Source: Patescibacteria group bacterium
Lineage (GTDB): Bacteria > Patescibacteriota > Minisyncoccia > UBA6257 > 2-01-FULL-56-20
Assembly: GCA_018971305.1 (NCBI GenBank)
Contig: JAGXBC010000001.1
Coordinates: 173,956-237,955, forward strand
Length of the DNA stretch: 64,000 nt
Reading direction: 5' to 3'
The position numbers and the translations under genes were made by a program. This document shows, in pieces, positions 8,495 through 50,413 of this stretch; position 1 is the first letter of the stretch; each line of letters begins with the position of its first letter. A model generated the notes under the pieces. The model saw nothing but the letters and a program-made list of their open reading frames with translations, ran no database searches and was not told the origin of the DNA.

Positions 8495-11143
8495 CTAATT
8501 GAATACCAAAGAGTCAAGGCGGAAATTTACCTTTACCTTGCTGCCATCTTTCAGTTCCCCGCGGATAATCTTGTCTGCCAATTTATCCAAAATAACCTTC
8601 TGCATTAAGCGCTTAAGGGGGCGCGCTCCATATTCAGCGCTAAAACCTTCTTTAATAAGATATTCGCGGGCAGTTTCGTTCACATCAATTTTAATTTTAT
8701 GGGCATCAAGACGCTTCTGGATCATATCAATCTGGATATCAACTATTTTGCCCAAGTCCTCTTTATTTAGGGGGTTGAAAATCACGATCTCATCTATCCG
8801 GTTCAAAAATTCCGGCCGGAAGCTCTCCCGCAGTGATTCCATAACTTTTTCTTTATAGCCGCCATCCTCGCTATCGCGGCTTATTTCATTATTTGCTGCG
8901 CTGAATCCGAAACGAGACATACCCTTCAAATATTGGCTGCCGACATTTGAGGTCATAATGATTATGGCGTTCTTGAAGTTGACAACCTTGCCTTTGCCGT
9001 CGGTGATGCGCCCGTTATCTAAGATCTGTAGTAACAAATTGAAGACCTCCGGGTGGGCTTTTTCTATTTCATCAAAAAGTATCAAGCTGTATGGCCTGTG
9101 GCGCACTACTTCCGTAAGCTGCCCGCCTTCGTCATAACCGACATAACCCGGTGGCGCTCCAATCAAGCGGCTGGTGGCATGTCTCTCCATATATTCGGAC
9201 ATATCTATGCGCACAAGAGCTTTTTCATCGTTGAACATAAACTCGGCCAGTGCCTTAGCGAGCTCTGTCTTACCGACCCCGGTAGGACCAAGAAACATGA
9301 ATGAACCCAATGGACGATTCTCGTCAGAAAGGCCGGCTCGAGCCCGGCGTAAAGCGTTAGCCACGGCTTTTATGCCGTCCCCTTGGCCGACAACTCGGTT
9401 ATCCAATACATCTTCTATCCTCACGAGCTTGTCGCTTTCTGATTCCAGCATGCGCCGAAGAGGAATACCGGTCCAAACGGAAACCACGGCGGCGACATCC
9501 TCTTTATCCACCGATTCCTTAAGGAACGATTCGTCGGTTGATTTTTTACCCTTCTTGGCGCGAATAGCGCTGAAGTGTTTCTTTTCAAAAGCGGTGAAGT
9601 CTTTTTCGGATTGCGGCAGTTCTCCGTACATTATCTGCGCCGTACGCTCAAGGTTCCCTTCGCGCTCCGCAATTTCGGCTTCACGCTTAAGATTGTCAAC
9701 TTTTTGGCGGAGCTGATGCAGTGTTTCAAACTTGATTTTCTCGGAATGCCAACGCGCGGAAAGCTCGTCATTTGTTTCTTTAAGACCTTTAAGGCCTTTA
9801 TCAATTTCCTTAAGACGCCCGCTGTTGTTTTTTTCTCCCTCTTTACTAAGGGCTTGGCGTTCTACTTCCAAGCGCGTGATATCGCGGCGGATGCCGTCTA
9901 TCTCTTTCGGCAAGCTTTCCGTCTCCAACCTGCGGGCAGCAGCCGCTTCGTCTATCAAATCAACCGCTTTGTCCGGCAAAAATCTATCTGTAATATAGCG
10001 GGATGACAGATTTACCGCCTCAATTATAGCTTCATCCGATATCCGCAAACCGTGATGAATTTCGTATTTTTCCTTTAGGCCTCGCAAAATGGCGATGGAA
10101 TCTTCAATAGACGGCTCTTCAACTATAATCGGCTGAAACCTGCGCTCCAGTGCCGGATCTTTTTCTATATAGCGCTGATATTCGCGGATAGTCGTAGCTC
10201 CGATTGTGTGAAGCTCGCCGCGCGCCAAAGCCGGCTTTAAAAGATTAGAGGCATCTACCGCGCCTTCAGCGGCTCCCGCACCAACGATCGTGTGGATCTC
10301 GTCTATAAAAAGAATTATCTGTCCCGAAGCGTTTTTTATTTCATTAACGAAAGCCTTAAGGCGGTCTTCAAATTCTCCGCGGAATTTAGTACCGGCGATG
10401 AGCGACCCCAGATCTAACATCAAAATTTTCTTATCTTTAAGCGGCTCCGGTACGTCGCCGGAGACTATTCTTTGAGCAAGCCCCTCAACAATGGCGGTCT
10501 TCCCGACTCCGGGTTCTCCGATAAGCGCCGGGTTGTTCTTCGTGCGGCGAGAGAGAACCTGCATCACGCGTCGTAACTCTTCTTCGCGGCCGATGACCGG
10601 ATCAAGTTTTCCGGCCTTAGCTTTTTCGGTTATATCTATAGAATATTTTTCCAGAACCTGGAACTTGCTCTCTGGAGTTTCGTCGGTAATCCGCACGGAG
10701 CCCCTAAGCTGGGCCAATGTCCGCCAAACAGCTTCGCGGCGAACGGCAAACTGGTCTAAAACATTTTTTGCCGCCGAGGGAACCTCTAGAATGGCAAGAA
10801 GCATATGCTCGCAGGAAACAAATTCGTCTTTCTGTTGAGCGGCAACTTTTGCAGCCTGATCCAAAACCTTCATTAACTCCTGGGAAAGATAAAGCTGGCC
10901 TACCGTAGAATTGGCCACAAGCCGCGGCAAGCGGCTCAGTTCCAAATCAACGTTTTCTGCCAATTTTTCTACATTTATTCCTATCCTATTCAGGACAGGA
11001 ATAATTAGAGACGATGGGTCTTCTAATAGTGACGCCAAAAGGTGAAGCGCCTTAAGCTCCCCATGACTTTTCTTGGCCGCAAGTTCCTGGGCGTTCTGCA
11101 AGGCTTCCTGGGCTTTGATTGTGAAACGATGGAAGTTGGGCAT
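8495..11143 (-). CDS. clpB: Chaperone ClpB (two AAA+ domains plus long coiled-coil M-domain)
   Basis: 882 aa. D1 Walker A GEPGVGKT and Walker [10 protein letters not shown]2 Walker A GPTGVGKT. Long coiled-coil middle region. N-terminal Clp_N repeats. Confidence 0.92.
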
Positions 11144-28556: not shown

Positions 28557-29549
28557 ATGAAACCAATTCTTGTTTCCGGCATCCAGACTTCAGGCCGATT
28601 GCACCTTGGCAATTATTTGGGCGCCTTAAAAAATTTTGTTGACCTGCAAAATTCGGGAAAGTACGATTGTTATTTTTTCTTAGCCGACTTACATTCATTA
28701 ACCGAGGCGTTCAATCCAGAAGATAAACATAAACAAGTCATTGAACTGGCCGCGGATTTTCTGGCTGCCGGCCTGGACCCCAAGAAATCCGTTATCTTCC
28801 AGCAATCGCAGGTCCCGGCGCATACGGAACTCGGATGGATTTTCAATACGATTACGCCATTCGGAGAATTAAACAGGATGACACAGTTTAAAGAGAAATC
28901 CGACGCGCAAAAAGAAAATGCGAATGTCGGGCTTTTAACTTATCCCACTCTGATGGCCGCCGACATTCTTTTATATGACGCCAAATTTGTGCCGGTTGGC
29001 GACGACCAAAAACAGCATTTGGAACTCACGAGAACTATCGCCCGTAAATTCAACGCCAAATTCGGCGAAACTTTCACGGAGCCACAACCACTATTTACAG
29101 CAGCCACTCGGGTGATGAACCTTGGCGAACCGGAGCGAAAAATGTCCAAGTCGCGCTCGCATCCACAAAACGTGATTTTCGTTGACGACTCGCCGGAAGA
29201 AATTTCCGCCAAAATAAAATCCGCCGTAACAGACTCCGGCTCGGAGGTTAAGTACGACATCAAAAACAAACCCGCAATAAGCAACTTGCTTACTATCTAT
29301 TCCGCCCTAAGCGGAGAAGCCATCCCTAAACTGGAGAAATATTTCACAGGGAAAAAGTATTCAGAGTTCAAAGTTAAGCTTGCAGAGCTGATATCCGATT
29401 ACTTCGCGGATTACCGCAAGAAGAAAAAGTTATTACTCGCCAAACCGCAGACACTTATAACAACGCTCAAATCCGGTTCAGCCAAAGCGGCAAAAGTTGC
29501 CGACAAAAAGATACACGAAGTTAAAAAAATAATAGGATTGGCGATTTAA
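28557..29549 (+). CDS. trpS: Tryptophanyl-tRNA synthetase
   Basis: SGIQTSGRLHLGNYLGA (HIGH region) and KMSKS at ERKMSKSRS. 330 aa. Confidence 0.9.
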   Translation: MKPILVSGIQTSGRLHLGNYLGALKNFVDLQNSGKYDCYFFLADLHSLTEAFNPEDKHKQVIELAADFLAAGLDPKKSVIFQQSQVPAHTELGWIFNTITPFGELNRMTQFKEKSDAQKENANVGLLTYPTLMAADILLYDAKFVPVGDDQKQHLELTRTIARKFNAKFGETFTEPQPLFTAATRVMNLGEPERKMSKSRSHPQNVIFVDDSPEEISAKIKSAVTDSGSEVKYDIKNKPAISNLLTIYSALSGEAIPKLEKYFTGKKYSEFKVKLAELISDYFADYRKKKKLLLAKPQTLITTLKSGSAKAAKVADKKIHEVKKIIGLAI

Positions 29550-32500
29550 ATCTTCCTTACAGCCAACCAGGAATCCGCGCCGTTAACCTTCGTTTCCGCC
29601 TCCGCTTCAAATTTTTCCGATTTTTTATATTCTATCGCTTCGGCTCCGACCTCAACTTTCAAAACTTTTTCGTACTTGTAGATTGCGAGACGCACTTCCG
29701 CCGGCAACTGGGCCATCAATATCATTTTATCCTTCGGCTTAAGCCCGGATTTTTGCCGCAGCTCCTGAACGGCCCTTATTATCTCCCGCAATATACCCTC
29801 TTCGCGCAGTTCCGGCGTGACAACGGTATCCAGTTCAATTTCTTCCTTAAATCTGGCACTGAAAACAACTTTCTTAATATTCACCTCTTCTGCTAAAATA
29901 CCAAGCAATTCTTTGGGAATCTTCAGCTTTCCGGTTTTAACCCTGAGTTCACCGAGAGGCTGACGGACTTTTATTCCCGCCTCCGCCCGCTTGGCCAATC
30001 CCAAACTAGCCAAACGCCTCACTTCGGCCATTCCTTCCAGTAATTTAGAATTTTGAGTTTTTAATTTTGGTTTTGTCTCCGGCCAATCTTCCAAATGAAC
30101 TGATTCCTGCGTTCCGTTAAGTTCTCCGTAAAGTAATTCCGAAAAGAATGGTGCGAAGGGAGCTGTTAGTTTCGCCGTTTCACGCAGAACCAAGCCGAGT
30201 GTGGCGCAAGCCGAATCAAAATCCTTGGCGCTCTCCGGTTTTTGCAAGCGCCGGCGCGAACGGCGGATATACCAGCGCGACAGATCGTCAACCAACTTCT
30301 CTATAACAAGCGCGGCTTCTCTTATTTCGTATTTATCCAGGTGCTTTGTGGTATCGGCAACAGTTTCTCCGAGCCGAGACAGAATCCATTTGTCCAGAAC
30401 ATTGGTCGAGGATGGAATTTTATCTCCCGAACTTTTCTCGCTCGCATATGTTTTATAAAATACCAAACTGTTCCAAAGAAGCATGTGCATCCTGCGGTAT
30501 GTTTTCGAAATCTCGTTCTCGTCAAAATTTTTTGTCTCGCCCGGAGGATTCACGGTATAGAAATACCAGCGGACGGCATCAACTCCGTATTTATTGATAA
30601 CCTCCCAGGGGTCAACTATATTCCCTTTGGACTTGGACATTTTCTGCCCGTGCTTATCGTTTATCAGCCCCAAAGAAACAACGTTCTTATATGGCGCCGG
30701 GTATCCCAAAGATGTAGCAACTGCAAGCAGGGTGTAAAACCATCCTCGCGTCTGATCCATTGCCTCCGAAATATAATCTGCCGGATAAGCGCGGCTTTTG
30801 TCTATAGCATCCTCATTCTCAAAAGGATAATGCTGCTGAGCGAAAGGCATTGAGCCGGAATCAAACCAGACGTCAGCTACTTCTTTGACCCGTCCTGTTC
30901 TCGCGCCGCATTGCGGGCAGGCAATATGGATACCATCGGCATATGGCTTGTGCAGGTCTATAACTCCAGTACCATCACGGGGCACTATCTTTAGAGTTAA
31001 CTCTCTTGTTTCAGCTACGCCGATAAAATCCTGGCCACGGCTTATTTTTTCCCGTATAGCGCGTTTTTCATCCCATGCTTCCGCCGCGTGCGTAAGCATC
31101 CAGATCGGATACTCATGGCTCACGAGCAGGATATTCTTGCCGCGGTATTTTTTTTCCAATTCCTGCAAAATTTCCCAAACCCGACTGCGCAAATCGCGCA
31201 GGGACTCGCCTCCTTCCGGCTTGCCCTCAAACTTTGATTCGTATGTGGGAAAAAGCTTATGGTAGCGGCTATCACGGCCCCCCTGAAGCATTGAACCCAA
31301 ATCTACCTCGCGCAGACGTTTGTCGAAAACTACTTTTTTGACGCCCAATGCCTCCGCCGCAATCTCGGCTGTTTCTTTTGTCCGGATTATGTCCGAAGAA
31401 ACGATGACGTCTATTTTTTTTCTGCTGCTTTTTAGTTTCTGCAAAAAATTTTTCGCCGACTTTTCCGCGAGCGAGCGGCCGATAACGGTCAAAGTGTTGT
31501 CTTTAGACCAACCGGAATCAATAAAGTGTTCGGCGTTGCTTTTCGCCTCTCCGTGCCGCATAACCCAATAATTATTCCTGGAACCTCCGGCAAGCTTACT
31601 GAGCTCGTCAATGCCTCCCGCCACTTCGCAGTGATTGCATTTTTTGCATTCCCAGATCGGTAACGGCGTTCCCCAGAACCGTTCACGGGAAAAATTCCAA
31701 TCTTTAACCTCACGCAGCCATTCGCCGAAACGCCCCTGTTTTACGTATTCCGGCGTCCAATTGATTTTATTGTTATTGGCTATAAGCTGCTTCCTTAAAC
31801 CGCTCATGGCTACGAACCAGGAATTTCTTGCGTAATATAGAATTGGCGTGCCGCACCGCCAGCAGTAGGGATAATCATGCTTGTAGGGAAGAACTTTCAG
31901 GAGCGAACCGCGCTGTTTTAAATGTTCAACGATGCCAGCCTCGGTTTCCTTGGACTTCGCGAACAGGCCGGAGAAACCAGAAACGTCCTTAGTGAACTTC
32001 CCAACTTCATCAACCGTGTGATACCTCGGTAAGCCGACTTTAAGTCCCAGCTGATAGTCATCTTCGCCGTACATAACCGCAGTGTGGACTACCCCGGTTC
32101 CCTCTGTCGTATTAACAAAATCGGCGTCGTAAACCTTGTACGAACTTGGCGAACGCAATGCCGGAATTTCAAAAAGCGGCTCGTAGCTCAGGCCGATAAG
32201 TTCGTTCCCCTCAAAAATCTCCCTCAGGTCGGGGGCGGAACCAAAAATAGCGGGATTATTCTTAACGGCTTCCTCAGCTACAATCCAACGCTCTATTTTC
32301 CCGTCAATCATCTTCTTCAGTACGGCGTATTTGATGTTTTTACCAACGGCCAAAGCCACATTTCCTGGGAGCGTCCACGGCGTAGTCGTCCAGGATAAAA
32401 CATACGTATCATCTCCCGCCGAGAAATATCCGCCGATTTTCTGCCCCCTCTTCAATTTGAATTTTATATAAACGGAGTCATCAGTAGTTTCTTTGTAACC

Positions 32501-33076
32501 CAAAGCAAGCTCGTGCGAAGAAAGCGACGTGCCGCAGCGCACGCACCAGGGAACTACCTTATGTCCCTTATAAAGAAGTTTTTTTGTCCAAAAGCGCTTT
32601 ATTATCCACCAAAGAGTTTCTATGTAGGAGCTTTCGTAAGTTATGTAAGGGTCTTTCAGGTCCAGCCAAAAGCCCATCCGTTTTGTGAGGCGCTCCCATT
32701 CGTCTTTGTATTCCCAGACGGACTCGCGGCATTTTTTATTGAAGGCCTCAACGCCGTAGTTTTCAATGTCCTTTTTCGTTTTCAGGCCCAATTGTTTTTC
32801 CACCCCTATCTCCACGGGCAATCCGTGCGTGTCCCAGCCGCCTTTTCTCGGAACCAAATAGCCCCGCATCGCCTTGTAGCGTGGGATTATGTCTTTGAAG
32901 GCACGAGCCAGAATATGGTGCACGCCCGGCCTGCCGTTAGCAGTTGGCGGACCCTCGTAAAATATGAACTTTTTAGCGCCTTTCCGCTTAGCGAGAGTTT
33001 TTGCAAAAATGTCGCTTTCGTTCCAAAATTTCAAAACTTTTTCCTCCTCCTTGGGAAGATTGAATTCTTCGGGCAT
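29546..33076 (-). CDS. ileS: Isoleucyl-tRNA synthetase (type 2) carrying an internal histidine-phosphatase-family domain insertion of about 200 aa (residues about 502-705)
   Basis: The HIGH-region PPTANGRPGVHH, CP1 editing domain and DVWFDSGSMPFAQ / KMSKS region are present. RHGE...RTKET...SHE phosphatase motifs sit between CKKCNHC and IACPQCG. Confidence 0.9.
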   Translation of the reverse strand: MPEEFNLPKEEEKVLKFWNESDIFAKTLAKRKGAKKFIFYEGPPTANGRPGVHHILARAFKDIIPRYKAMRGYLVPRKGGWDTHGLPVEIGVEKQLGLKTKKDIENYGVEAFNKKCRESVWEYKDEWERLTKRMGFWLDLKDPYITYESSYIETLWWIIKRFWTKKLLYKGHKVVPWCVRCGTSLSSHELALGYKETTDDSVYIKFKLKRGQKIGGYFSAGDDTYVLSWTTTPWTLPGNVALAVGKNIKYAVLKKMIDGKIERWIVAEEAVKNNPAIFGSAPDLREIFEGNELIGLSYEPLFEIPALRSPSSYKVYDADFVNTTEGTGVVHTAVMYGEDDYQLGLKVGLPRYHTVDEVGKFTKDVSGFSGLFAKSKETEAGIVEHLKQRGSLLKVLPYKHDYPYCWRCGTPILYYARNSWFVAMSGLRKQLIANNNKINWTPEYVKQGRFGEWLREVKDWNFSRERFWGTPLPIWECKKCNHCEVAGGIDELSKLAGGSRNNYWVMRHGEAKSNAEHFIDSGWSKDNTLTVIGRSLAEKSAKNFLQKLKSSRKKIDVIVSSDIIRTKETAEIAAEALGVKKVVFDKRLREVDLGSMLQGGRDSRYHKLFPTYESKFEGKPEGGESLRDLRSRVWEILQELEKKYRGKNILLVSHEYPIWMLTHAAEAWDEKRAIREKISRGQDFIGVAETRELTLKIVPRDGTGVIDLHKPYADGIHIACPQCGARTGRVKEVADVWFDSGSMPFAQQHYPFENEDAIDKSRAYPADYISEAMDQTRGWFYTLLAVATSLGYPAPYKNVVSLGLINDKHGQKMSKSKGNIVDPWEVINKYGVDAVRWYFYTVNPPGETKNFDENEISKTYRRMHMLLWNSLVFYKTYASEKSSGDKIPSSTNVLDKWILSRLGETVADTTKHLDKYEIREAALVIEKLVDDLSRWYIRRSRRRLQKPESAKDFDSACATLGLVLRETAKLTAPFAPFFSELLYGELNGTQESVHLEDWPETKPKLKTQNSKLLEGMAEVRRLASLGLAKRAEAGIKVRQPLGELRVKTGKLKIPKELLGILAEEVNIKKVVFSARFKEEIELDTVVTPELREEGILREIIRAVQELRQKSGLKPKDKMILMAQLPAEVRLAIYKYEKVLKVEVGAEAIEYKKSEKFEAEAETKVNGADSWLAVRKI

Positions 33077-33103
33077 AGATTAAAAATATCACGTTATTCG
33101 TAT

Positions 33104-34072
33104 CTATTCAAAAAATCTGCTGCGTATTTTATGGGTATTGCCATGGCTCAAAAGTCCAAGATAAGCGTTAATCGTCGCTGGCGCTGGGTTGGCTATTACC
33201 ATCTTTAACATTCTTCTTCTCGTCGTTGTCCGAAAAACACGGTGATCAGGAAAATTTATCCACCCCAAAAAATCAACTCCGGACGCAATGGTATTTATGA
33301 AAATTTTATTTGGATGAAGCGTAAGTCGCAATTTATTTTCCAAAAATTCTTTTATTTTTGGAACTAGAGATTCCAGCAATCCGCGGTTCTCCGAGAAAAT
33401 AACGAAGTCGTCCGCATAACGTATATAGTGCCTTGTTTTCAGTTTGTGCTTCACAAACTGGTCAAACTCGTTCATATAAACATTTACAAAGAGTTGTGAA
33501 GTGAGGTTGCCGAGCGGTAAACCTTGTCCAGGCGCGCTTGATGAAAAACTCTCGATAACTCTTTCCAGGAGCCGCAGCGTATCAGCGTCTGGGATATATG
33601 AACGTAGAATATCAAGGAGGACGGCGTGGTCGATGTTGGCAAAAAACTTTTGAATGTCACACCTGAGAACCCAGGAGGTACGCGTATTGTTCTTACTAAT
33701 AATGCGGGCGAACGCGCGAAAACGATTCATTGCGGCATGCGTTCCTTTTCCGACTCGGCATGAGAACGAATCAGCTATGAAAGTTTTATCGAAGAACGGA
33801 TAGAGCACCCGGTAGATGGCGTGATGGAGTAAGCGGTCGCGGACGGTTGCCTTGTGGATATTCCGCGGTTTCGGGTCGCAGATGTTGAATGCTTGATACC
33901 CACCGTGTCGGTACGCACCGTTCAAAATATCCGCGCGAAGTGATAGAATGTTATCCATAAGGCGCGATTGGAACTCCTGCACATCACGTTTCCCGCTCTT
34001 GCCGCGCAAAAATTCCCTCCAGGCCTCAAGCAGGTTTTCCACGCTTATGATTTCCTCAAATTTATGAACCAT
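33104..34072 (-). CDS. DGR-type reverse transcriptase
   Basis: The RT domain carries YADD (YIRYADDFVIF). Motif 4 reads LPLGNLTSQLF, the [I/L]GxxxSQ signature of DGR RTs, rather than the QGxxxSP of group II introns. It is about 322 aa from Met 34072, with no maturase or endonuclease domains. The ORF-track extension to 34264 is antisense to avd. Confidence 0.8.
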   Translation of the reverse strand: MVHKFEEIISVENLLEAWREFLRGKSGKRDVQEFQSRLMDNILSLRADILNGAYRHGGYQAFNICDPKPRNIHKATVRDRLLHHAIYRVLYPFFDKTFIADSFSCRVGKGTHAAMNRFRAFARIISKNNTRTSWVLRCDIQKFFANIDHAVLLDILRSYIPDADTLRLLERVIESFSSSAPGQGLPLGNLTSQLFVNVYMNEFDQFVKHKLKTRHYIRYADDFVIFSENRGLLESLVPKIKEFLENKLRLTLHPNKIFINTIASGVDFLGWINFPDHRVFRTTTRRRMLKMVIANPAPATINAYLGLLSHGNTHKIRSRFFE

Positions 34073-34460
34073 CTTAATTTTCACAATAAAAATTTTCAAG
34101 TAACTCCCCCCCCCCCGACACATCACGCTTCCTATCATCCAACACCTGGTAGCGGCGTACAAAACCTGGCATGAATTTCTGCCGCATGTACCCAAGGATG
34201 CGAGATACTCGTTAGGAACTAAGGTCGACGCTTCGTTTATAGAAACGATTGAAGCGGTATTCACCGCAAGCTATCTCAGTAGAGAGAGTAAACTTCCTTA
34301 TCTCGAAAAAGCTGCCGCGAAACTGGACATGGTTAAATTCTTTCTCCAGATAATCTGGGAAGTCAAGGCGCTCGACAATAAAAAATATATTACACTCTCG
34401 GAAAAGCTGGATGAAATAGGCAGAATGCTCGGCGGATGGCTTAGGAAAATGTCTACTTAA
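34064..34460 (+). CDS. avd: Avd-like accessory variability determinant (four-helix-bundle / 23S-rRNA-IVS family). Frame is interrupted at a C11 tract (34106-34116).
   Basis: The downstream frame encodes HITLPIIQHLVAAYKTWHEFLPHVPKDARYSLGTKV...LDEIGRMLGGWLRKMST*, whose C-terminal EIGRMLGGWL matches the Avd EVGRILGSWI motif. The only upstream ATG (34064) is in a different frame. C10 or C13 would fuse them into a 132-aa protein. Confidence 0.6.
34106..34116. repeat. Poly(C)11 homopolymer tract at the 5' end of avd
   Basis: Eleven consecutive C residues counted directly. The tract lies between the ATG at 34064 and the conserved Avd coding frame. Confidence 0.9.
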
Positions 34461-34505
34461 ACCATTCCGCCGGACATCGCCCGTTGTTTTCATTTGCTGC
34501 CAATT

Positions 34506-34624
34506 ACTCGCGACGCGACCGTTGCGATTGAAGTCGTTGTCAAGCCAGTTCCAGTTCAGGTACCAGCGCTCGCCGTTCTGATTGAGGTAGGGAACGTTCC
34601 GGTTGCCGTTCGCGTTCAGCACGA
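34506..34624 (-). repeat. DGR template repeat (TR), about 119 bp
   Basis: Near-identical copy of 34966-35084. It is Asn-codon (AAC) rich on the minus strand (...NANGNRNVPYLNQNGERWYLNWNWLDNDFNRNGRVAS). Confidence 0.8.
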
Positions 34625-34886
34625 ATGTGCGCAAGGCCGTCCGGGCCACCATCCTTCGAGTCACAAACAAAAACCATACTCTCGGGATTGTATCGTATTC
34701 GGAATTTTGAATTCCTTAGCCTCGCACACCAAGTAGCAACAATTATGAAGCGATTAACGAATGCACGCTAGGAGAAAACCCGTCCTCCCCCATTCCGGCA
34801 GACGCCATCGCGGAATTCGATGCGCACAACCTTAGCCGTGCGCATAATATCTACTATCCATAAGGATTATATCAAAAAAATTTAAT

Positions 34887-34908
34887 GGGCCCTAACGAAT
34901 TAGGGCCC
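34887..34908 (-). terminator. Perfect 9-bp GC hairpin (gggccctaa-cgaa-ttagggccc) about 55 nt 3' of the VR. Candidate DGR homing cruciform and/or terminator of the target gene.
   Basis: Exact inverted repeat with a 4-nt loop. On the minus strand it is followed by attaaattttttt. Confidence 0.55.
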
Positions 34909-34959
34909 AAGGGTTGAGGGTTCAAGCGACACAAAGGATCTGAGTCACAAGAACCAATG

Positions 34960-35580
34960 CTACTTGCTCGCGACGCGACCGTTGCGATTGAAGCCGCAGT
35001 CAAGCCAGCTCCGGCCCAGGTACCAGCGCTCGCCGTTCCGACTGAGGTAGGGAACGTTCCGGTAGCCGTTCGCGTACAGCACGACCAAACCCGGAAAATC
35101 GATGTAAACTTTTCCGAGAAGGGACATGAATACGGGGAATTCATCCTGGTGCTCAACAAGCCAAACGGCCTGCTGGTAACCCAGGACAAGATTCCGGCGG
35201 GACACGAGCCTGCGCTCGTATTCGCTGCCAACGATAGACTTCTCGTCAGAACGCAACAATGTGCCAAGACGGAGAATAACTTCATCGGTTGGCGAAGAGT
35301 CGGACTCGATTTTTTCGATCTGAGAGAACGCCCTGCGGAGTTCCTCGAGTGTCGGCTGCTTCAGGGCTGGAATCCGAACGGCGACATCTTCCATCGTCTT
35401 CCAGAATTCCAACATCTTGATCTCGGCGTTGCCGAGATAGATGTCACGGACGCCTGAAAGGTTGGTGCCGGTTGAAAGCCATTTTACAAAATCGGGCGTG
35501 CAACCATTCCGCTCAAGCGCATGATCGAATTCTGCGGCTTGGCGAGCAAACATGACGGGTTGAGACTTGTCATTAGGCAT
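34960..35580 (-). CDS. DGR target (variable) protein, 206 aa, with the C-terminal 40 aa encoded by the VR
   Basis: Strong RBS (AAAGGAGGA) upstream. C-terminus ...LYANGYRNVPYLSRNGERWYLGRSWLDCGFNRNGRVASK* aligns with the TR-encoded peptide. No obvious signal peptide. Confidence 0.75.
   Translation of the reverse strand: MPNDKSQPVMFARQAAEFDHALERNGCTPDFVKWLSTGTNLSGVRDIYLGNAEIKMLEFWKTMEDVAVRIPALKQPTLEELRRAFSQIEKIESDSSPTDEVILRLGTLLRSDEKSIVGSEYERRLVSRRNLVLGYQQAVWLVEHQDEFPVFMSLLGKVYIDFPGLVVLYANGYRNVPYLSRNGERWYLGRSWLDCGFNRNGRVASK
34966..35084 (-). repeat. DGR variable repeat (VR) at the 3' end of the target gene
   Basis: 12 mismatches to the TR over 119 bp. Eleven are at plus-strand T positions, which are adenines on the coding (minus) strand. 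Confidence 0.8.
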
Positions 35581-35653
35581 GACATGTCCTCCTTTTCTAT
35601 GCGACGTGTTCCAGATTAGGAACGTGTCGCGATGCCACTGGCTCCCCCGATCA

Positions 35654-35717
35654 AACTGGGTTTTGCCATAGCAGAAAACTATCCGATTGCCTAGAGCTTA
35701 TCGAAAGGCTTTCTGCT
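35654..35717. repeat. 16-bp perfect inverted repeat (tttgccatagcagaaa / tttctgctatggcaaa) with 32-nt spacer in the argS-to-DGR-target intergenic region
   Basis: The arms at 35654-35669 and 35702-35717 are exact reverse complements. The element is located 75-140 nt upstream of the target-gene start and just downstream of the argS stop. Confidence 0.6.
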
Positions 35718-35774
35718 ATGGCAAATGTAAATAAATCAGGTTTTCAAAGTACGCTACAATTATACACCATATTA

Positions 35775-37502
35775 CTATATTCTGTCAATAGCAGTGATTC
35801 CCAATAAATTCAGCCCTTTTTCTATGATTTTCGCCGTTATATTAATAAGCCCAAGAAGCGCGCTCCGCCGACTGGCGGATTCTTCTTTGAGTACCGGCGT
35901 GGTTTCGTATAAACGGTTAGCCAACACGGCCAGCTTATAAAGATAGTTAGCTAGGTTGCTCGTCTGCAGTGTTTCCCCACTTCGCGCCACTTCGTCGGGA
36001 AATTCAAAAATTTTCCGAGCGAGCGCAAGTTCAACATCAGAATTTAATAATGTAAAGTTCTTGCTTTTAGGTTTTAGAGCTTGGGACTTTCTTAAAATAC
36101 TCTTAAGGCGGGCATACGTGTACTGCAAATACGGCCCGCTGTCTCCGGAAAAATCCAGCATTCTTTTCCAGTCAAAAACGATGTCGGTTGTGCGTCCCTC
36201 CCGCAAATCATTGTATTTCAAGGCTCCAACGGCAACCGCCTCAGCGATTTTATCTTTTTCTTTAGCCGATAATTCTTTATTTTTTTCTTCAACAATCTCC
36301 CTCGCCAGCTTGATAGCCTTACCTAAAACCTCTTTAAGTAATATGGTCCTCCCTTCGCGTGTAGCGAGCTTTTGGCCGCTCTCCCCTAGAACCAAACCGT
36401 ATTTAACGTGCTTGAGTTCAACCCCATCGGCCAATCCAAGAATATTAGTTATGGCGAAAAGCTGTTCAAAGTGCAGAGATTGTTCGTTGCCCACAACATA
36501 TAAAATTTTCTCCGGCTTATATTTTTTGACACGGTATTCAATATTCGCAATATCGCGCGTAAGGTAAAGGGATGCTCCATCCGCTTTTTCTATTAACGCC
36601 GGAGGCAGATTGAACTTATCTAGTTTTATAACTATCGCGCCCTCGCTTTTTACGGCGACGCCGTCTTGCACAAGGCGCGAAACAAGCGGCTTCATATCTT
36701 TCTCAAAAAAGCTTTCGCCTTTCCATTCGTCGAACTCTACACCGAGCTCTTTATATGTTCTCTCGAATTCTTTAAGCGATTCTTTTTTAAACCATTGCCA
36801 AAGCTTGCGGTTTTCCTTATCGCCTTCTTCTAATTTTTTGAATTCTTCCTGGCCCTCCAGCTCCAATCCCGGGCGGGACTTCATCTCGTCGTGAAAGCGG
36901 ACGTAGAGCTTCTGCAATTCCTCTATTGGTTTTTCTTCTATCTTTTTCTTATCGCCCCACATTTTATAGGCGGCGATAAGTTTGCCGAACTGCGTCCCCC
37001 AGTCGCCCAAATAATTCCAGCGGATAACTTTATATCCCAGTGATTCAAAAACATTGGCAAGCGCCGCGCCGATTATCGTTGTCCGCAAATGGCCCACGTG
37101 CATCATCTTCGCGATATTCGGCTGAGAATATTCAACGATAACGGTTTTGCTTTTTCCAATACTTCTCTCGCCATATTTTTTTATATTCTTGGTAACCATG
37201 GCCAATTCGTTTTGCAGCGCTTCAGGTGAAAACCAAAAGTTTATAAATCCCGGCGCAGCGGCTTCAACTTTTTGGAAAAACCCAGCCGGCGCAGCGGCAC
37301 TAATTTTCTGCACCAATTCCCTGGCCAGTTCAAGAGGATTTTTCTTTTCCCGCTTAGCCAAAACCATAGCCAAGTTCGTGGAATAATGGCCGAAGTTTTC
37401 TTGTTCCGGAACTGTAACGCTAAAATCTCTGCCATCGGAAAACTCGGATAAAATTTTTATTATCTTATCTTTCATTACCATTAAGAATAATATAAAAAGC
37501 AA
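35775..37502 (-). CDS. argS: Arginyl-tRNA synthetase
   Basis: HVGHLRTTIIG (HIGH) plus the N-terminal Arg_tRNA_synt_N-like domain and the C-terminal DALR anticodon-binding region. The true start may be an internal Met (MKDKII at about 37475). Confidence 0.88.
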   Translation of the reverse strand: MLFILFLMVMKDKIIKILSEFSDGRDFSVTVPEQENFGHYSTNLAMVLAKREKKNPLELARELVQKISAAAPAGFFQKVEAAAPGFINFWFSPEALQNELAMVTKNIKKYGERSIGKSKTVIVEYSQPNIAKMMHVGHLRTTIIGAALANVFESLGYKVIRWNYLGDWGTQFGKLIAAYKMWGDKKKIEEKPIEELQKLYVRFHDEMKSRPGLELEGQEEFKKLEEGDKENRKLWQWFKKESLKEFERTYKELGVEFDEWKGESFFEKDMKPLVSRLVQDGVAVKSEGAIVIKLDKFNLPPALIEKADGASLYLTRDIANIEYRVKKYKPEKILYVVGNEQSLHFEQLFAITNILGLADGVELKHVKYGLVLGESGQKLATREGRTILLKEVLGKAIKLAREIVEEKNKELSAKEKDKIAEAVAVGALKYNDLREGRTTDIVFDWKRMLDFSGDSGPYLQYTYARLKSILRKSQALKPKSKNFTLLNSDVELALARKIFEFPDEVARSGETLQTSNLANYLYKLAVLANRLYETTPVLKEESASRRSALLGLINITAKIIEKGLNLLGITAIDRI

Positions 37503-47860: not shown

Positions 47861-50413
47861 TCATGCCTTTGTTTCGCCGATCTCATTAAATTGTATTTCT
47901 TCTCCGACAGAAGAAACCTTTATATGGCTGCCGCGATTTACTGTTTTTTTCAATATCTTCTGCGCGAGCGGGGCACGAAGCTTTTCATCTATCACTCGGC
48001 GCAGAGGCCTCGCACCGAATGCAGGATCATAACCAAGCTTAACAAGCTCACTAATCAGAGAGTCGTCGAATTCCATCTTTATACCCTGCTCGGCTACCAT
48101 GGCCGCGACATCCTGCAGATTAATTGAGACTATCTTAGCCAGATCTACCGGAAGAAGATTTTTAAAAATAACGATGCGCGAGAATCTATTGATAAGTTCC
48201 GGCTTAAAAACATCGGTTAATCTTTTCTTTAGATATTCCGATATTTCCGACATGGACTGTCCTTTATTCAGAGCATCGTTGATGATATCCGAATGGGCGT
48301 TGGACGTGGCGATAATAACCGTATTTTGAAAATCAACCACTCTTCCCAAGTTGTCGGTCAGGCGGCCATCATCCAAAACCTGCAGAAAAAGGTTGAGTAT
48401 GTCCGGAAATGCTTTTTCAAACTCATCCAAAAGCACCAAGCTGTATGGTTTCTGTAAAATCGCATCTGTGAGCGTACCGTTCACGCTGCCATCCGGTGAA
48501 CCGATAAATCTGTAGAAACTTTGCTTGTCTTGGTATTCCGTCATATCAAAACGCACCATCGCTTTTTCCGAGCCGAACTGAACGCGCGCCAGAATCTTAG
48601 CGAGCTCGGTTTTGCCGACGCCGGTAGGGCCAACAAAGAGAAAACTGGAAATCGGGCCGCCGGCGCGAGAAAGGCCGCTTCTATATTCTCGTAAAGATTC
48701 GGATACGGCGCGCACGGCTTCTTCCTGATCGATTAGACGTTCGTGAATAATATTCTCCAGGTTCAAAAGTTGTTTAGCTTCGTCACCGGACGCCTCGTGG
48801 ATAGGAATATTCACCTTAGCCTCTGCCACCCTGATAACCTGCTCCGGGCCAAGAACTTTTTCTCCCCTTCTTTTTACGTCTACTACAGCGCTTTTCAATA
48901 GTTCCTCGGCGCTTGCCGGTAAAAATTTATTGCGAAAATATTTTTTAGCGAGAATCACGGATTTCTTTACGGCGCCGAAACTAATGGTAACGCCAAACTG
49001 CTTCTCCAACAGCAACCCATCGTAACTCAAGATTTTTTCGGCTTCGTCTTCCTTTATTTCATTAACTCTGATAATTTCAAATGCGCCGGCGAAATCGCTT
49101 CTCGGCTCAATGAACTGCTTAAACTCTTTGGGATATGTAGCACCAATTATAGGAAAAGAATTATTCATAATTATCGGCATCAGCTCATCGGCGGCGGAAA
49201 GGTATGCCGTACCCGAGGTCCGCACTAAATTATGAATGTCCGCGATATAGATTATAATATTGCCGGCAGTTATGATCTCCTCAATAATTTTCTTCAGCCG
49301 CTGATTCAACTCTTCCGGCGGCGCTCCCGCAACCAAGCTACCAAGCTCCAATCCCACAAGCCTCTTGTCGAAAAGTGCCTGTGGCACTTCGTCTTTGGAT
49401 AATTTATAAGCCAAGTGGGCAACCAATGTTTCCTTGCCTATACCGGATTCACCTATCAGCAAGGCATTAGGGTTTATCGGCCGAGCCAATGTATCTATTA
49501 ATCGTTCCAATTCTTCTTTATGACCGATAAGAAACCCCGCGCGTCCCTGCCTGGCTAAATCGGTGAAATCGGTGGAATATCTATCTAGAGTAGGAGTCGG
49601 TCTTGAAGTCCAATCCCTGTTCATGATTCTGTGCCTTGACCGAACCGGTCCCGACACAAAACCGGCTACGCTGCCGGGCAAACGTCCGAACGAAGAACTC
49701 TTACTTAAGGAGCTGAAAATCAATGCTCTTTCCAGGTCCCCGGCATCAATCCCGAAGATTCCGAATATCCTCTTCAAAGATTCGTTTTCTATTAGGGGGA
49801 GGGAAGAAAATAGGTCGCTTAATTCTATGAATGCGTGTCCCGACTCCAACGCCCGATTCAGAGCGCTAACCGTTAAAAGTTCCACGTTCCCGAGGAGAGA
49901 TTCTTGTGTCGGACCCACTCCTTCGCCCCTGCCGCTGGCGGATAAAAATTCTTCGATTTTCTGCCTGAATTCATCAAAGGGAATATCAAGGCGCCTCAAG
50001 CCGCTTTCTATTTCAGAAAAATTAAGAAGCTGGCGCGCCAGTTCCAAAAAGAAATCGTGCCGAGTGATTAGGCTACTATCGAAAGATTTTTCTATTATCC
50101 CGAATGCCTTCGGCCTAAGAAATAAGGCCAGATTAACCCTTCCCTTTCTGGGGAATTCTGTAAGCGGCTTATCCGCCTGCCTCAGGTGCATTACTCTGTC
50201 TAGTAAGAATAAAATCAGAAATATACCGAAGAAACGCATCCAGGTTAAATCAGACAAAATAAATGTCGCGGTTGCGGCGGCAAGAACCAGGTATCCAATG
50301 TAGCTCAAAATCCTCACCAAAAATCTGCCTGGCCAGCTCATCCGCAGGCGCGGGTCGTTGAAGGAAAGTTTTAATTCCTGAGCTCTTTTTGTTTTAGAAA
50401 TTTCTTGCTGCAT
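47861..50413 (-). CDS. Membrane-anchored Clp/Hsp100-family double-AAA+ ATPase with degenerate D1 nucleotide-binding motifs
   Basis: The N-terminal hydrophobic segment is FLVRILSYIGYLVLAAATATF...FFGIFLILFLL. D1 Walker A reads GESGIGKE and Walker B reads YIADIH (no DE). D2 is intact with GPTGVGKT and LLDEFEKA. The ClpB-like C-terminal domain is present. Confidence 0.7.
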   Translation of the reverse strand: MQQEISKTKRAQELKLSFNDPRLRMSWPGRFLVRILSYIGYLVLAAATATFILSDLTWMRFFGIFLILFLLDRVMHLRQADKPLTEFPRKGRVNLALFLRPKAFGIIEKSFDSSLITRHDFFLELARQLLNFSEIESGLRRLDIPFDEFRQKIEEFLSASGRGEGVGPTQESLLGNVELLTVSALNRALESGHAFIELSDLFSSLPLIENESLKRIFGIFGIDAGDLERALIFSSLSKSSSFGRLPGSVAGFVSGPVRSRHRIMNRDWTSRPTPTLDRYSTDFTDLARQGRAGFLIGHKEELERLIDTLARPINPNALLIGESGIGKETLVAHLAYKLSKDEVPQALFDKRLVGLELGSLVAGAPPEELNQRLKKIIEEIITAGNIIIYIADIHNLVRTSGTAYLSAADELMPIIMNNSFPIIGATYPKEFKQFIEPRSDFAGAFEIIRVNEIKEDEAEKILSYDGLLLEKQFGVTISFGAVKKSVILAKKYFRNKFLPASAEELLKSAVVDVKRRGEKVLGPEQVIRVAEAKVNIPIHEASGDEAKQLLNLENIIHERLIDQEEAVRAVSESLREYRSGLSRAGGPISSFLFVGPTGVGKTELAKILARVQFGSEKAMVRFDMTEYQDKQSFYRFIGSPDGSVNGTLTDAILQKPYSLVLLDEFEKAFPDILNLFLQVLDDGRLTDNLGRVVDFQNTVIIATSNAHSDIINDALNKGQSMSEISEYLKKRLTDVFKPELINRFSRIVIFKNLLPVDLAKIVSINLQDVAAMVAEQGIKMEFDDSLISELVKLGYDPAFGARPLRRVIDEKLRAPLAQKILKKTVNRGSHIKVSSVGEEIQFNEIGETKA

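Follow-up and report, generated by a model that had tools for sequence, protein, structure and literature searches.

The stretch of DNA considered here, called the window throughout, comprises 64,000 nucleotides from a Patescibacteria group bacterium (NCBI GenBank assembly GCA_018971305.1, contig JAGXBC010000001.1, positions 173,956 to 237,955 of the forward strand). Between the aminoacyl-tRNA synthetase genes ileS (29546-33076, - strand) and argS (35775-37502, - strand) it contains a segment, spanning 33104-35788 up to a consensus promoter at 35788-35759, which is with high probability a chromosomal diversity-generating retroelement (DGR) of the type of the Patescibacteria, or Candidate Phyla Radiation (CPR). 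The components are arranged in the order target gene with variable repeat (VR), template repeat (TR), avd on the reverse strand, and reverse transcriptase (RT). DGRs are enriched in the CPR, and a DGR in such a genome is by itself ordinary, its architecture and type of target being catalogued already. What is added here are two features which are solid as observations, a frame-shifting simple repeat in avd that recurs throughout the lineage and a 5' RNA domain supported by covariation. Read functionally, the former may be an on/off gate and the latter may represent an alternative architecture of the template RNA. The following features were located at the locus:

33104-34072, - strand: DGR reverse transcriptase, 322 aa from its ATG (open reading frame (ORF), profile and structure-database matches)
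34064-34460, + strand: avd, with ATG at 34064, conserved Avd frame at 34101-34460 and stop codon at 34458-34460 (profile matches)
34106-34116, + strand: homopolymer of C11, read as G11 on the strand of the RT, at the avd 5' end
34425-34477, - strand: hairpin directly 3' of the TR, kept in the sub-lineage, with 0 compensatory pairs
34498-34624, - strand: template repeat, with 29 A in its 118-nt core and 9 AAC (repeat search)
34617-34861, - strand: structured 5' domain of the TR RNA, about 245 nt with 10 helices (covariation, covariance model)
34866-34874, - strand: extended -10 element TGATATAAT, the predicted promoter of the TR RNA, whose conserved 5' end follows about 7 nt further on
34886-34909, - strand: intrinsic terminator of the target gene, a 10-bp GC stem followed by a T-run (position conserved in relatives)
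34958-35084, - strand: variable repeat, with its core at 35084-34967 and an IMH-like (initiation of mutagenic homing) 3' boundary at 34966-34958 that includes the TAG stop codon
34960-35580, - strand: target gene, 206 aa, with the VR at its C-terminus (ORF, homologue alignment, AlphaFold2 (AF2) model)
35662-35725, - strand: long hairpin with 26-nt arms in the 5' leader of the target gene (folding)
35759-35788, - strand: consensus sigma-70-type promoter TTGACA-18-TATAAT, 12/12, overlapping the argS stop

TR and VR together form a 127-nt direct repeat which is 89% identical and the sole such repeat in the window; no second copy of the VR was found elsewhere in these 64 kb. On the coding (-) strand the 118-nt core shows 11 mismatches, ten at TR adenines and one T to C change (TR 34553, VR 35013), and the probability of at least 10 of 11 mismatches falling on A, given 24.6% A, is 7e-6. 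Since 10 of the 11 mismatches lie at adenines of the downstream copy, this copy is the TR. It is non-coding and is found on the same strand 460 nt downstream of the VR; it precedes the RT start by 426 nt. Three more differences between the repeats (34506, 34503 and 34501) are located at the 3' boundary, where GCAACGGTCGCGTCGCGAG is followed by CAAGTAGCA in the VR and by TAATTGGCA in the TR. In most relatives the homologous boundary reads CAACTGGCA (..CTGGCA) in the TR and CAAGTAGCA (..GTAGCA) in the VR, L016 being an exception, and by analogy it would function as a boundary of the IMH/IMH* type. Adenine-restricted differences were found in all 10 of the related TR/VR pairs compared, nine of which were scored ungapped while the alignment of L013 was gapped. 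At a position where the target family conserves a Trp, the VR of the window has Arg as a result of the single T to C change. An initial annotation of this DNA had proposed a template repeat of 119 bp, but the homology of TR and VR comprises the 118-nt core and a further 9 nt; the described richness in AAC codons and the position of the VR in the last ~40 codons of a 206-aa ORF (35580-34960, - strand) were both confirmed. The same annotation had named substitutions without adenine bias as an observation that would speak for an ordinary gene duplication, and the mismatch pattern of the core counters this.

The RT contains the motif-4 sequence LGNLTSQ (residues 187-193, 33514-33494) and YADD (residues 219-222, 33418-33407), both of which had been annotated correctly. 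It matches the Pfam family RVT_1 with 84 bits, and its best solved relative in the PDB is the Bordetella enzyme bRT (8ub7, E 1.2e-46), whose IGSLTSQ is aligned to LGNLTSQ. The next-best solved relatives are RTs of the group II and retron types with E 7e-21 or worse. More than 7,900 relatives were retrieved at E <= 1e-60, and all of those with a named source come from Patescibacteria-group bacteria. That the locus is no DGR at all, and instead combines a group II intron or retron-type RT with an ordinary duplicated gene segment, had been raised as a possible refutation. It might appeal to the source records, in which relatives are labelled "retron-type" or "group II intron RT/maturase", and to the top NCBIfam match of the RT, a group II RT model. 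However, the RT stays far below the cut-offs of this model (TIGR04416, 142.7 bits against 300) and of the retron model NF038233 (56 bits against 235), no retron or group II RNA family was matched in an Rfam search of positions 32900-35900 at E <= 1, and bRT leads the other solved relatives by 25 orders of magnitude. As the adenine-specific pattern is moreover repeated in 10 loci and a gene of the bAvd family is present, we regard this explanation as refuted and its residual probability as negligible. The RT belongs to the DGR clade, and the annotated DGR with RT, Avd, TR and VR-bearing target between ileS and argS was borne out by each test that was run.

The avd gene lies head-to-head with the RT gene, the two ATG codons overlapping by 9 nt. 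Its core frame matches the Pfam family bAvd with 56.8 bits (cut-off 40), and in a single-sequence search of the PDB the only match, Bbp7 (4dwl, E 0.77), was non-significant. In the window the Avd frame is preceded immediately by a stop codon and has no start codon of its own; avd therefore lacks an intact ORF here because the C11 run shifts the ATG at 34064 out of the Avd frame. A version with C10 represents an intact avd of 131 aa. This version was found in GCA_028865265.1, a metagenome-assembled genome (MAG) of the Patescibacteria group containing the same contig, and in three independent Logan assemblies, all of them otherwise identical over 5-13 kb; C11 versus C10 is the sole difference over 12.9 kb. 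Apart from the C11 tract, no G/C run in the 64-kb window reaches a length of 8. The initial annotation was right about an Avd-like gene on the strand opposite to the RT, which lacks an in-frame start codon in the window, and all parts that it described are present at the coordinates given. Its "complete" DGR does not hold for the window sequence, as avd is frameshifted at C11 and intact only in the C10 versions.

For a comparison across the lineage, 20 genome loci were collected via the target family and 80 metagenome loci via the Avd family, the latter from more than 565 relatives. A simple repeat, either poly-C, (CA)n or (CCAG)n, occupies the 5' site of avd in about 84% of 83 related loci. 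Pure C runs of 6-30 nt (mode 9-10) are present in 66 of the 83 analysable sequences, 36-51 nt upstream of avd codon Y32. The distance to codon 32 is fixed (~41 +/- 5 nt), whereas the distance to the RT start is variable. The related loci, 433 kb in all, contain 66 G/C runs of 8 or more, and 63 of these sit at the avd site. Four loci without poly-C carry (CA)8, (CA)5, (CA)12 or (CCAG)9 at this site. What the lineage has kept is therefore a simple repeat that shifts the frame; neither a peptide nor a G-rich RNA motif is conserved. With respect to the start codon upstream, the loci with a tract fall into three classes of about equal size: in frame, in need of +1, and in need of -1. Of the 13 repeat-free loci, by contrast, 12 possess an in-frame ATG (Fisher p = 0.0007). 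At 90% identity to each other, L005 carries C7 and L009 C10. This pattern is that of simple-sequence contingency loci.

A G-tract serving as promoter or Shine-Dalgarno sequence of the RT was considered and rejected: the spacing to the RT start is too variable, and transcription from the promoter-like match at 34099-34071 would begin after the ATG. The longest tract was seen in L047, with a C30 run at the avd site around 2965-2994. The Logan contig L166 breaks off at the tract with 24 nt of poly-C, from which it appears that assemblies break or misbehave at this position.

The relation between the avd frame and variation of the VR was followed in strain sets, defined as contigs encoding exactly the same RT; these are consensus sequences and not reads. 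Set P0142, made up of a complete Giovannonibacteria genome and Logan runs (C10, in frame), holds three VR alleles; two of them differ at 19 sites, each of which is a TR adenine, the other 1.5 kb being identical. The VR alleles of P0164 (C9, in frame) differ mostly at TR adenines, and P0178 (C8, in frame at the 5' tract; L154-L163) contains several VR alleles that differ at TR adenines. The out-of-frame sets P0121 (C8, 19 contigs), P0095 (C9, 15 contigs) and P0096 (C8, 7 contigs) show no difference in 1.5 kb including the VR. With the strain of the window, which has C10 in four assemblies and was counted as in frame, and which shows no VR variation, the VR varies in three of four in-frame strains and in none of four out-of-frame strains (one-sided p = 0.07). 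Many contigs of the variable sets (L109, L110, L136, L137, L150-L153 and L158-L163) end in or near the VR/TR region, as might be expected if heterogeneity of the VR, or the TR/VR repeat itself, fragments the assemblies. In the P0178 contigs a serine recombinase gene follows the RT.

The second lineage-wide feature is the RNA around the TR. Judged from the sequence, the TR lies in a predicted transcription unit of its own, composed of the extended -10 promoter, the 5' domain of about 245 nt, the TR and a hairpin. The conserved 5' end of the RNA, GGATAGTAG, follows the terminator of the target gene and the extended -10 element, and 47 of 71 relatives have TGnTAnn[AT]T at the -10 position. Of the 61 pairs predicted for the 5' domain, 33 showed compensatory changes in a set of ten sequences. 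A covariance model detected the domain, mostly in full length, in 88 of 100 sources, and in the loci checked it lies directly 5' of the TR or of a TR remnant, on the TR strand. Among 89 aligned sequences, 92.6% of the cells were paired, compared with 68% after shuffling and about 40% with the partners slid; 57 of the 61 pairs covary, and none of 500 shuffles reached the observed value. This alignment was fitted to the covariance model, which inflates pairing somewhat, an effect that the slid-partner control addresses. The Rfam search described above yielded no family for the 5' domain. A long-range helix (34737-34718 with 34638-34618) has a 3' strand that ends within the first TR bases, which suggests that the template is delimited at its 5' end by a duplex; in its function this would recall the Bordetella "cPRT Stop".

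On the other side of the TR, the hairpin consists of a spacer arm, ATGTCCGGCGG (34477-34467), and the antisense of the "MLGGW" codons of avd (34435-34425). The TR region as a whole folds no better than shuffled sequences (z -0.78), and this hairpin is a candidate structure. In most other loci the TR is followed by CGCAACTCTCTTCATTTC, a GC hairpin and a U-run.

The target gene is likely driven by the promoter at 35759-35788. Its leader of about 170 nt is strongly structured (minimum free energy -67.6 kcal/mol, z -5.9), and a second hairpin stands directly before the AAGGAGG Shine-Dalgarno sequence. For the hairpin at 35662-35725 the same Rfam search returned only chance matches of miRNA-like type. 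Among 69 homologues of the target, every one with a named source is an unnamed or hypothetical protein of a Patescibacteria-group or related MAG. The family has a variable helical N-terminus followed by the conserved core IPAL.RPT...IERDTSPT...EYERR...LGYQQA.WLVEHQDEFP...LGKVYIDFPGLVV, and in its C-terminal VR variable positions alternate with conserved G, R and W residues. The AF2 model of the target has a pLDDT of 89. Sequence searches in Pfam, NCBIfam, PADLOC and PDB gave no match, and Foldseek found no significant match in the PDB; the weak fold matches are mostly C-type-lectin-like and FGE-like domains, TvpA included.

The order of target gene with VR, TR, inverted avd and RT is shared by nine of the 20 genome loci and by every RT-bearing locus among the 80 from metagenomes, and avd and RT are divergent in all RT-bearing related loci. 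Wu et al. (2018, PMC5758913) define this order, with avd reversed, as architecture B3, TR-(avd)-RT, and give it for 90% of the CPR DGRs in their set. According to Roux et al. (2021, PMC8144416), the targets of the CPR-restricted clade 2 typically possess neither transmembrane segments nor other conserved domains that can be recognised. Features that had been called atypical are therefore typical: the position of avd opposite to RT, TR and target is the published norm, and the missing signal peptide, of which indeed none was seen by inspection, is usual for CPR targets.

The location between ileS and argS was given correctly as well, while the term "inserted" finds no support in the sense of a recent event, as neither mobility genes nor flanking repeats were seen at the DGR and divergent relatives have like neighbours. 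Thus, ileS lies beside the RT in L060, argS and smpB surround the cassette in L092, and L015 has the order ileS, argS, target remnant, smpB, which argues for long residence rather than recent insertion; DGR parts also lie beside trpS in L071. The loci L004, L007, L008, L015 and L020 are DGR remnants with a target homologue and the leader RNA (up to 233 bits) and without adjacent avd or RT. Their TR is truncated (60 nt with mismatches at A only in L020) or absent, and L007 and L010 keep only a 3' fragment of the RT.

In the window the RT stop is situated 27 nt upstream of the ileS start on the same strand (gap 33077-33103). Same-strand housekeeping genes follow the RT within about 120 nt, in one case overlapping it, in the relatives L111-L166, among them genes for an RF-1-family protein, ruvA, ribosomal protein L25, rbfA and a SpoU methylase, which suggests that the cassettes sit inside housekeeping transcription units. 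The neighbouring IleRS (29546-33076, - strand) is unusually long with 1176 aa and carries, according to precomputed Pfam data, a histidine-phosphatase domain His_Phos_1 (PF00300) between two tRNA-synt_1 segments. Another repeat in the window, 8999-9295 against 48353-48637, consists of ~100-nt stretches of 72% identity in the same order, 39.3 kb apart; these are probably paralogous genes unrelated to the DGR.

Following the Bordetella paradigm, a complex of RT and Avd would copy the TR RNA into an adenine-mutagenised cDNA that replaces the VR, and this replacement would recode the last ~40 residues of the target protein. A slipped-strand change in the length of the avd repeat would set the supply of Avd and thereby turn mutagenic homing on or off; cells with C11 would be DGR-off, and cells with C10 would encode the Avd of 131 aa. 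We give about an even chance to the proposal that the conserved, length-variable repeat acts in this way as a contingency switch, or at the least as a rheostat. The wider proposal, by which the repeat is a stochastic on/off switch of DGRs across the CPR and the ~245-nt RNA an undescribed lineage-wide part of the DGR RNA that takes over roles of the Bordetella Spacer, for instance the cDNA stop at the TR 5' end, is put forward tentatively, with chances that fall a little short of even.

Several findings weigh against the explanation given here. The difference between C11 and C10 could be a homopolymer assembly error, and the match of avd to the NCBIfam model DivGenRetAVD (76.6-77.3 bits) lies just below its cut-off of 80. 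The VR is identical in all five assemblies of the window genome, four of which carry the in-frame C10; ongoing diversification in this genome is therefore unsupported at consensus level, and the polymorphism among close strains that the initial annotation had proposed as a check was not observed here. No tract-length polymorphism occurs in the seven same-RT contig sets (8, 9, 10, 8, 9, 8 and 11), and these invariant lengths argue against fast switching, which is not visible at consensus level. The link between an in-frame tract and VR variation is a trend in the predicted direction on eight strains only, and for one of these, P0073 (C11, out of frame), uniformity of the VR was judged only from its contigs being grouped as similar. 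Finally, avd of P0178 contains an internal frameshift at a T7 in 10 of 10 contigs, T8 being in frame, and its VR is still diverse. Either broken frames are decoded here by slippage or frameshifting, or the VR diversity is older than the break; as a broken frame does not strictly preclude VR diversity, room is left for recoding by slippage.

Some of these points would be expected if the locus were an ordinary, constitutively competent CPR DGR, with C11 as a sequencing or assembly error and the poly-C as a poly-proline linker of mutation-prone codons without a regulatory role. C10 with an intact avd in four of five assemblies, the constant tract lengths within the sets and the poly-C artefact at the end of L166, which indicates that assemblers struggle at the tract, agree with this explanation. 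We nevertheless consider it unlikely, because a proline linker would mix CCN codons, whereas 66 of the 83 sequences keep a pure run of C, and because (CA)n and (CCAG)n encode other peptides at the same site in other lineages. About two thirds of the consensus sequences are out of frame, including strains that were sampled 15-19 times with identical results, which makes random read error impossible, and loci without the repeat are almost always in frame (12 of 13). The decay of the element, with avd as a pseudogene in these cells and the TR/VR differences as relics of earlier activity, would account for the out-of-frame avd of the window, for the same VR in all assemblies, for the non-adenine T to C change that turns a conserved scaffold Trp into Arg, and for the clear remnants among the relatives, with target and leader RNA, a truncated or absent TR and no adjacent avd or RT. 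Against this, the RT ORF, the TR, the structured RNA (224 bits against the family model), the promoters and the terminator are intact, and the sole lesion, absent from the four sister assemblies, alters a reversible homopolymer by 1 nt; we hold decay to be quite improbable.

The repeat could also be functional without being a switch at the DNA level. Avd would then be produced from all frames via transcriptional slippage or ribosomal frameshifting, such recoding keeping Avd low, or the tract would tune the divergent promoter or the 5' untranslated region of the RT. This would fit the uniform distribution of frames, in which in-frame alleles are not enriched, the out-of-frame alleles that are stable for years in well-sampled strains, the diverse VRs of P0178 with its internal T7 shift, a classic slippery U-run, and the position of the tract, in most loci 11-68 nt ahead of the RT start, by which it is part of the RT 5' region too. 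On the other hand, (CA)n and (CCAG)n are poor substrates for slippage of RNA polymerase or ribosome and classic ones for replication slippage, the distance to the RT start is variable while that to avd codon 32 is fixed, and VR variation is confined to strains with an in-frame 5' tract. A role of this kind seems improbable to us on balance.

A repeat that gates the essential factor Avd would, if true, provide a simple answer, in the form of bet-hedging, to the question how cells restrain or time the mutagenesis by DGRs, with a hypermutable switch controlling a targeted hypermutator. The 5' RNA domain with a promoter of its own points to a construction of the template RNA in the most DGR-rich lineage that departs from the Bordetella model, and a defined RNA gene of ~430 nt together with two proteins represents a set for reconstitution. 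In the literature searched, with Paul et al. (2017, Nat Microbiol) outside its scope, we found neither a description of a structured RNA 5' of a DGR TR nor a relevant report that links DGRs or avd with homopolymers or phase variation. The RNA survey in the preprint on the bRT-Avd structure covered only 40 nt upstream of the TRs (10.1101/2023.10.23.563531).

Among the known systems, the DGR of the window is closest to the B3 and clade 2 DGRs of the CPR. It shares with them the host group, the order of components with avd on the reverse strand, a small target with a C-terminal VR and without recognisable domain, transmembrane segment or signal peptide, and occasional non-adenine substitutions. 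There is no difference in architecture, and the avd repeat and the ~245-nt RNA appear to be lineage-wide. With the DGR of Bordetella phage BPP-1 (mtd-avd-TR-brt) the element has in common an RT of one family (E 1e-46) that bears the [I/L]GxxxSQ motif, the Avd family, the adenine-specific flow from TR to VR, the IMH-like 3' boundary and a stem-loop directly 3' of the TR. In contrast to BPP-1, avd is inverted and divergent from the RT, the element is chromosomal and not phage-borne, and the target is no tail fibre. The RNA differs likewise. In Bordetella the essential RNA elements comprise 20 nt before the TR and a Spacer of 140 nt after it, the "cPRT Stop" being formed with downstream Spacer sequence (10.1101/2023.10.23.563531), whereas the large conserved structure of the window lies upstream of the TR and the RNA downstream of it is antisense to avd.

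The target resembles the DGR variable proteins of the C-type-lectin type (Mtd, TvpA 2y3c, archaeal and Thermus variants) in that the VR forms the C-terminal ~40 residues and its variable positions alternate with a conserved scaffold of aromatic residues and Gly. It differs from them in the lack of any Pfam, NCBIfam or PDB sequence match, in its size of only 206 aa, and in a small helical N-terminal domain without an export signal. The avd repeat, finally, is similar to the contingency loci with poly-G/C tracts in Campylobacter and Neisseria and with tetranucleotides in Haemophilus, where a G/C run of 7-11 nt lies few codons after the start, tract length sets the frame, consensus genomes are mixed in and out of frame, and unit types differ by lineage. 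Unlike these, the avd tract is stable across assemblies of one strain, the likeness resting on consensus sequences, and the affected gene encodes no surface or restriction-modification function but an accessory factor of targeted hypermutation.

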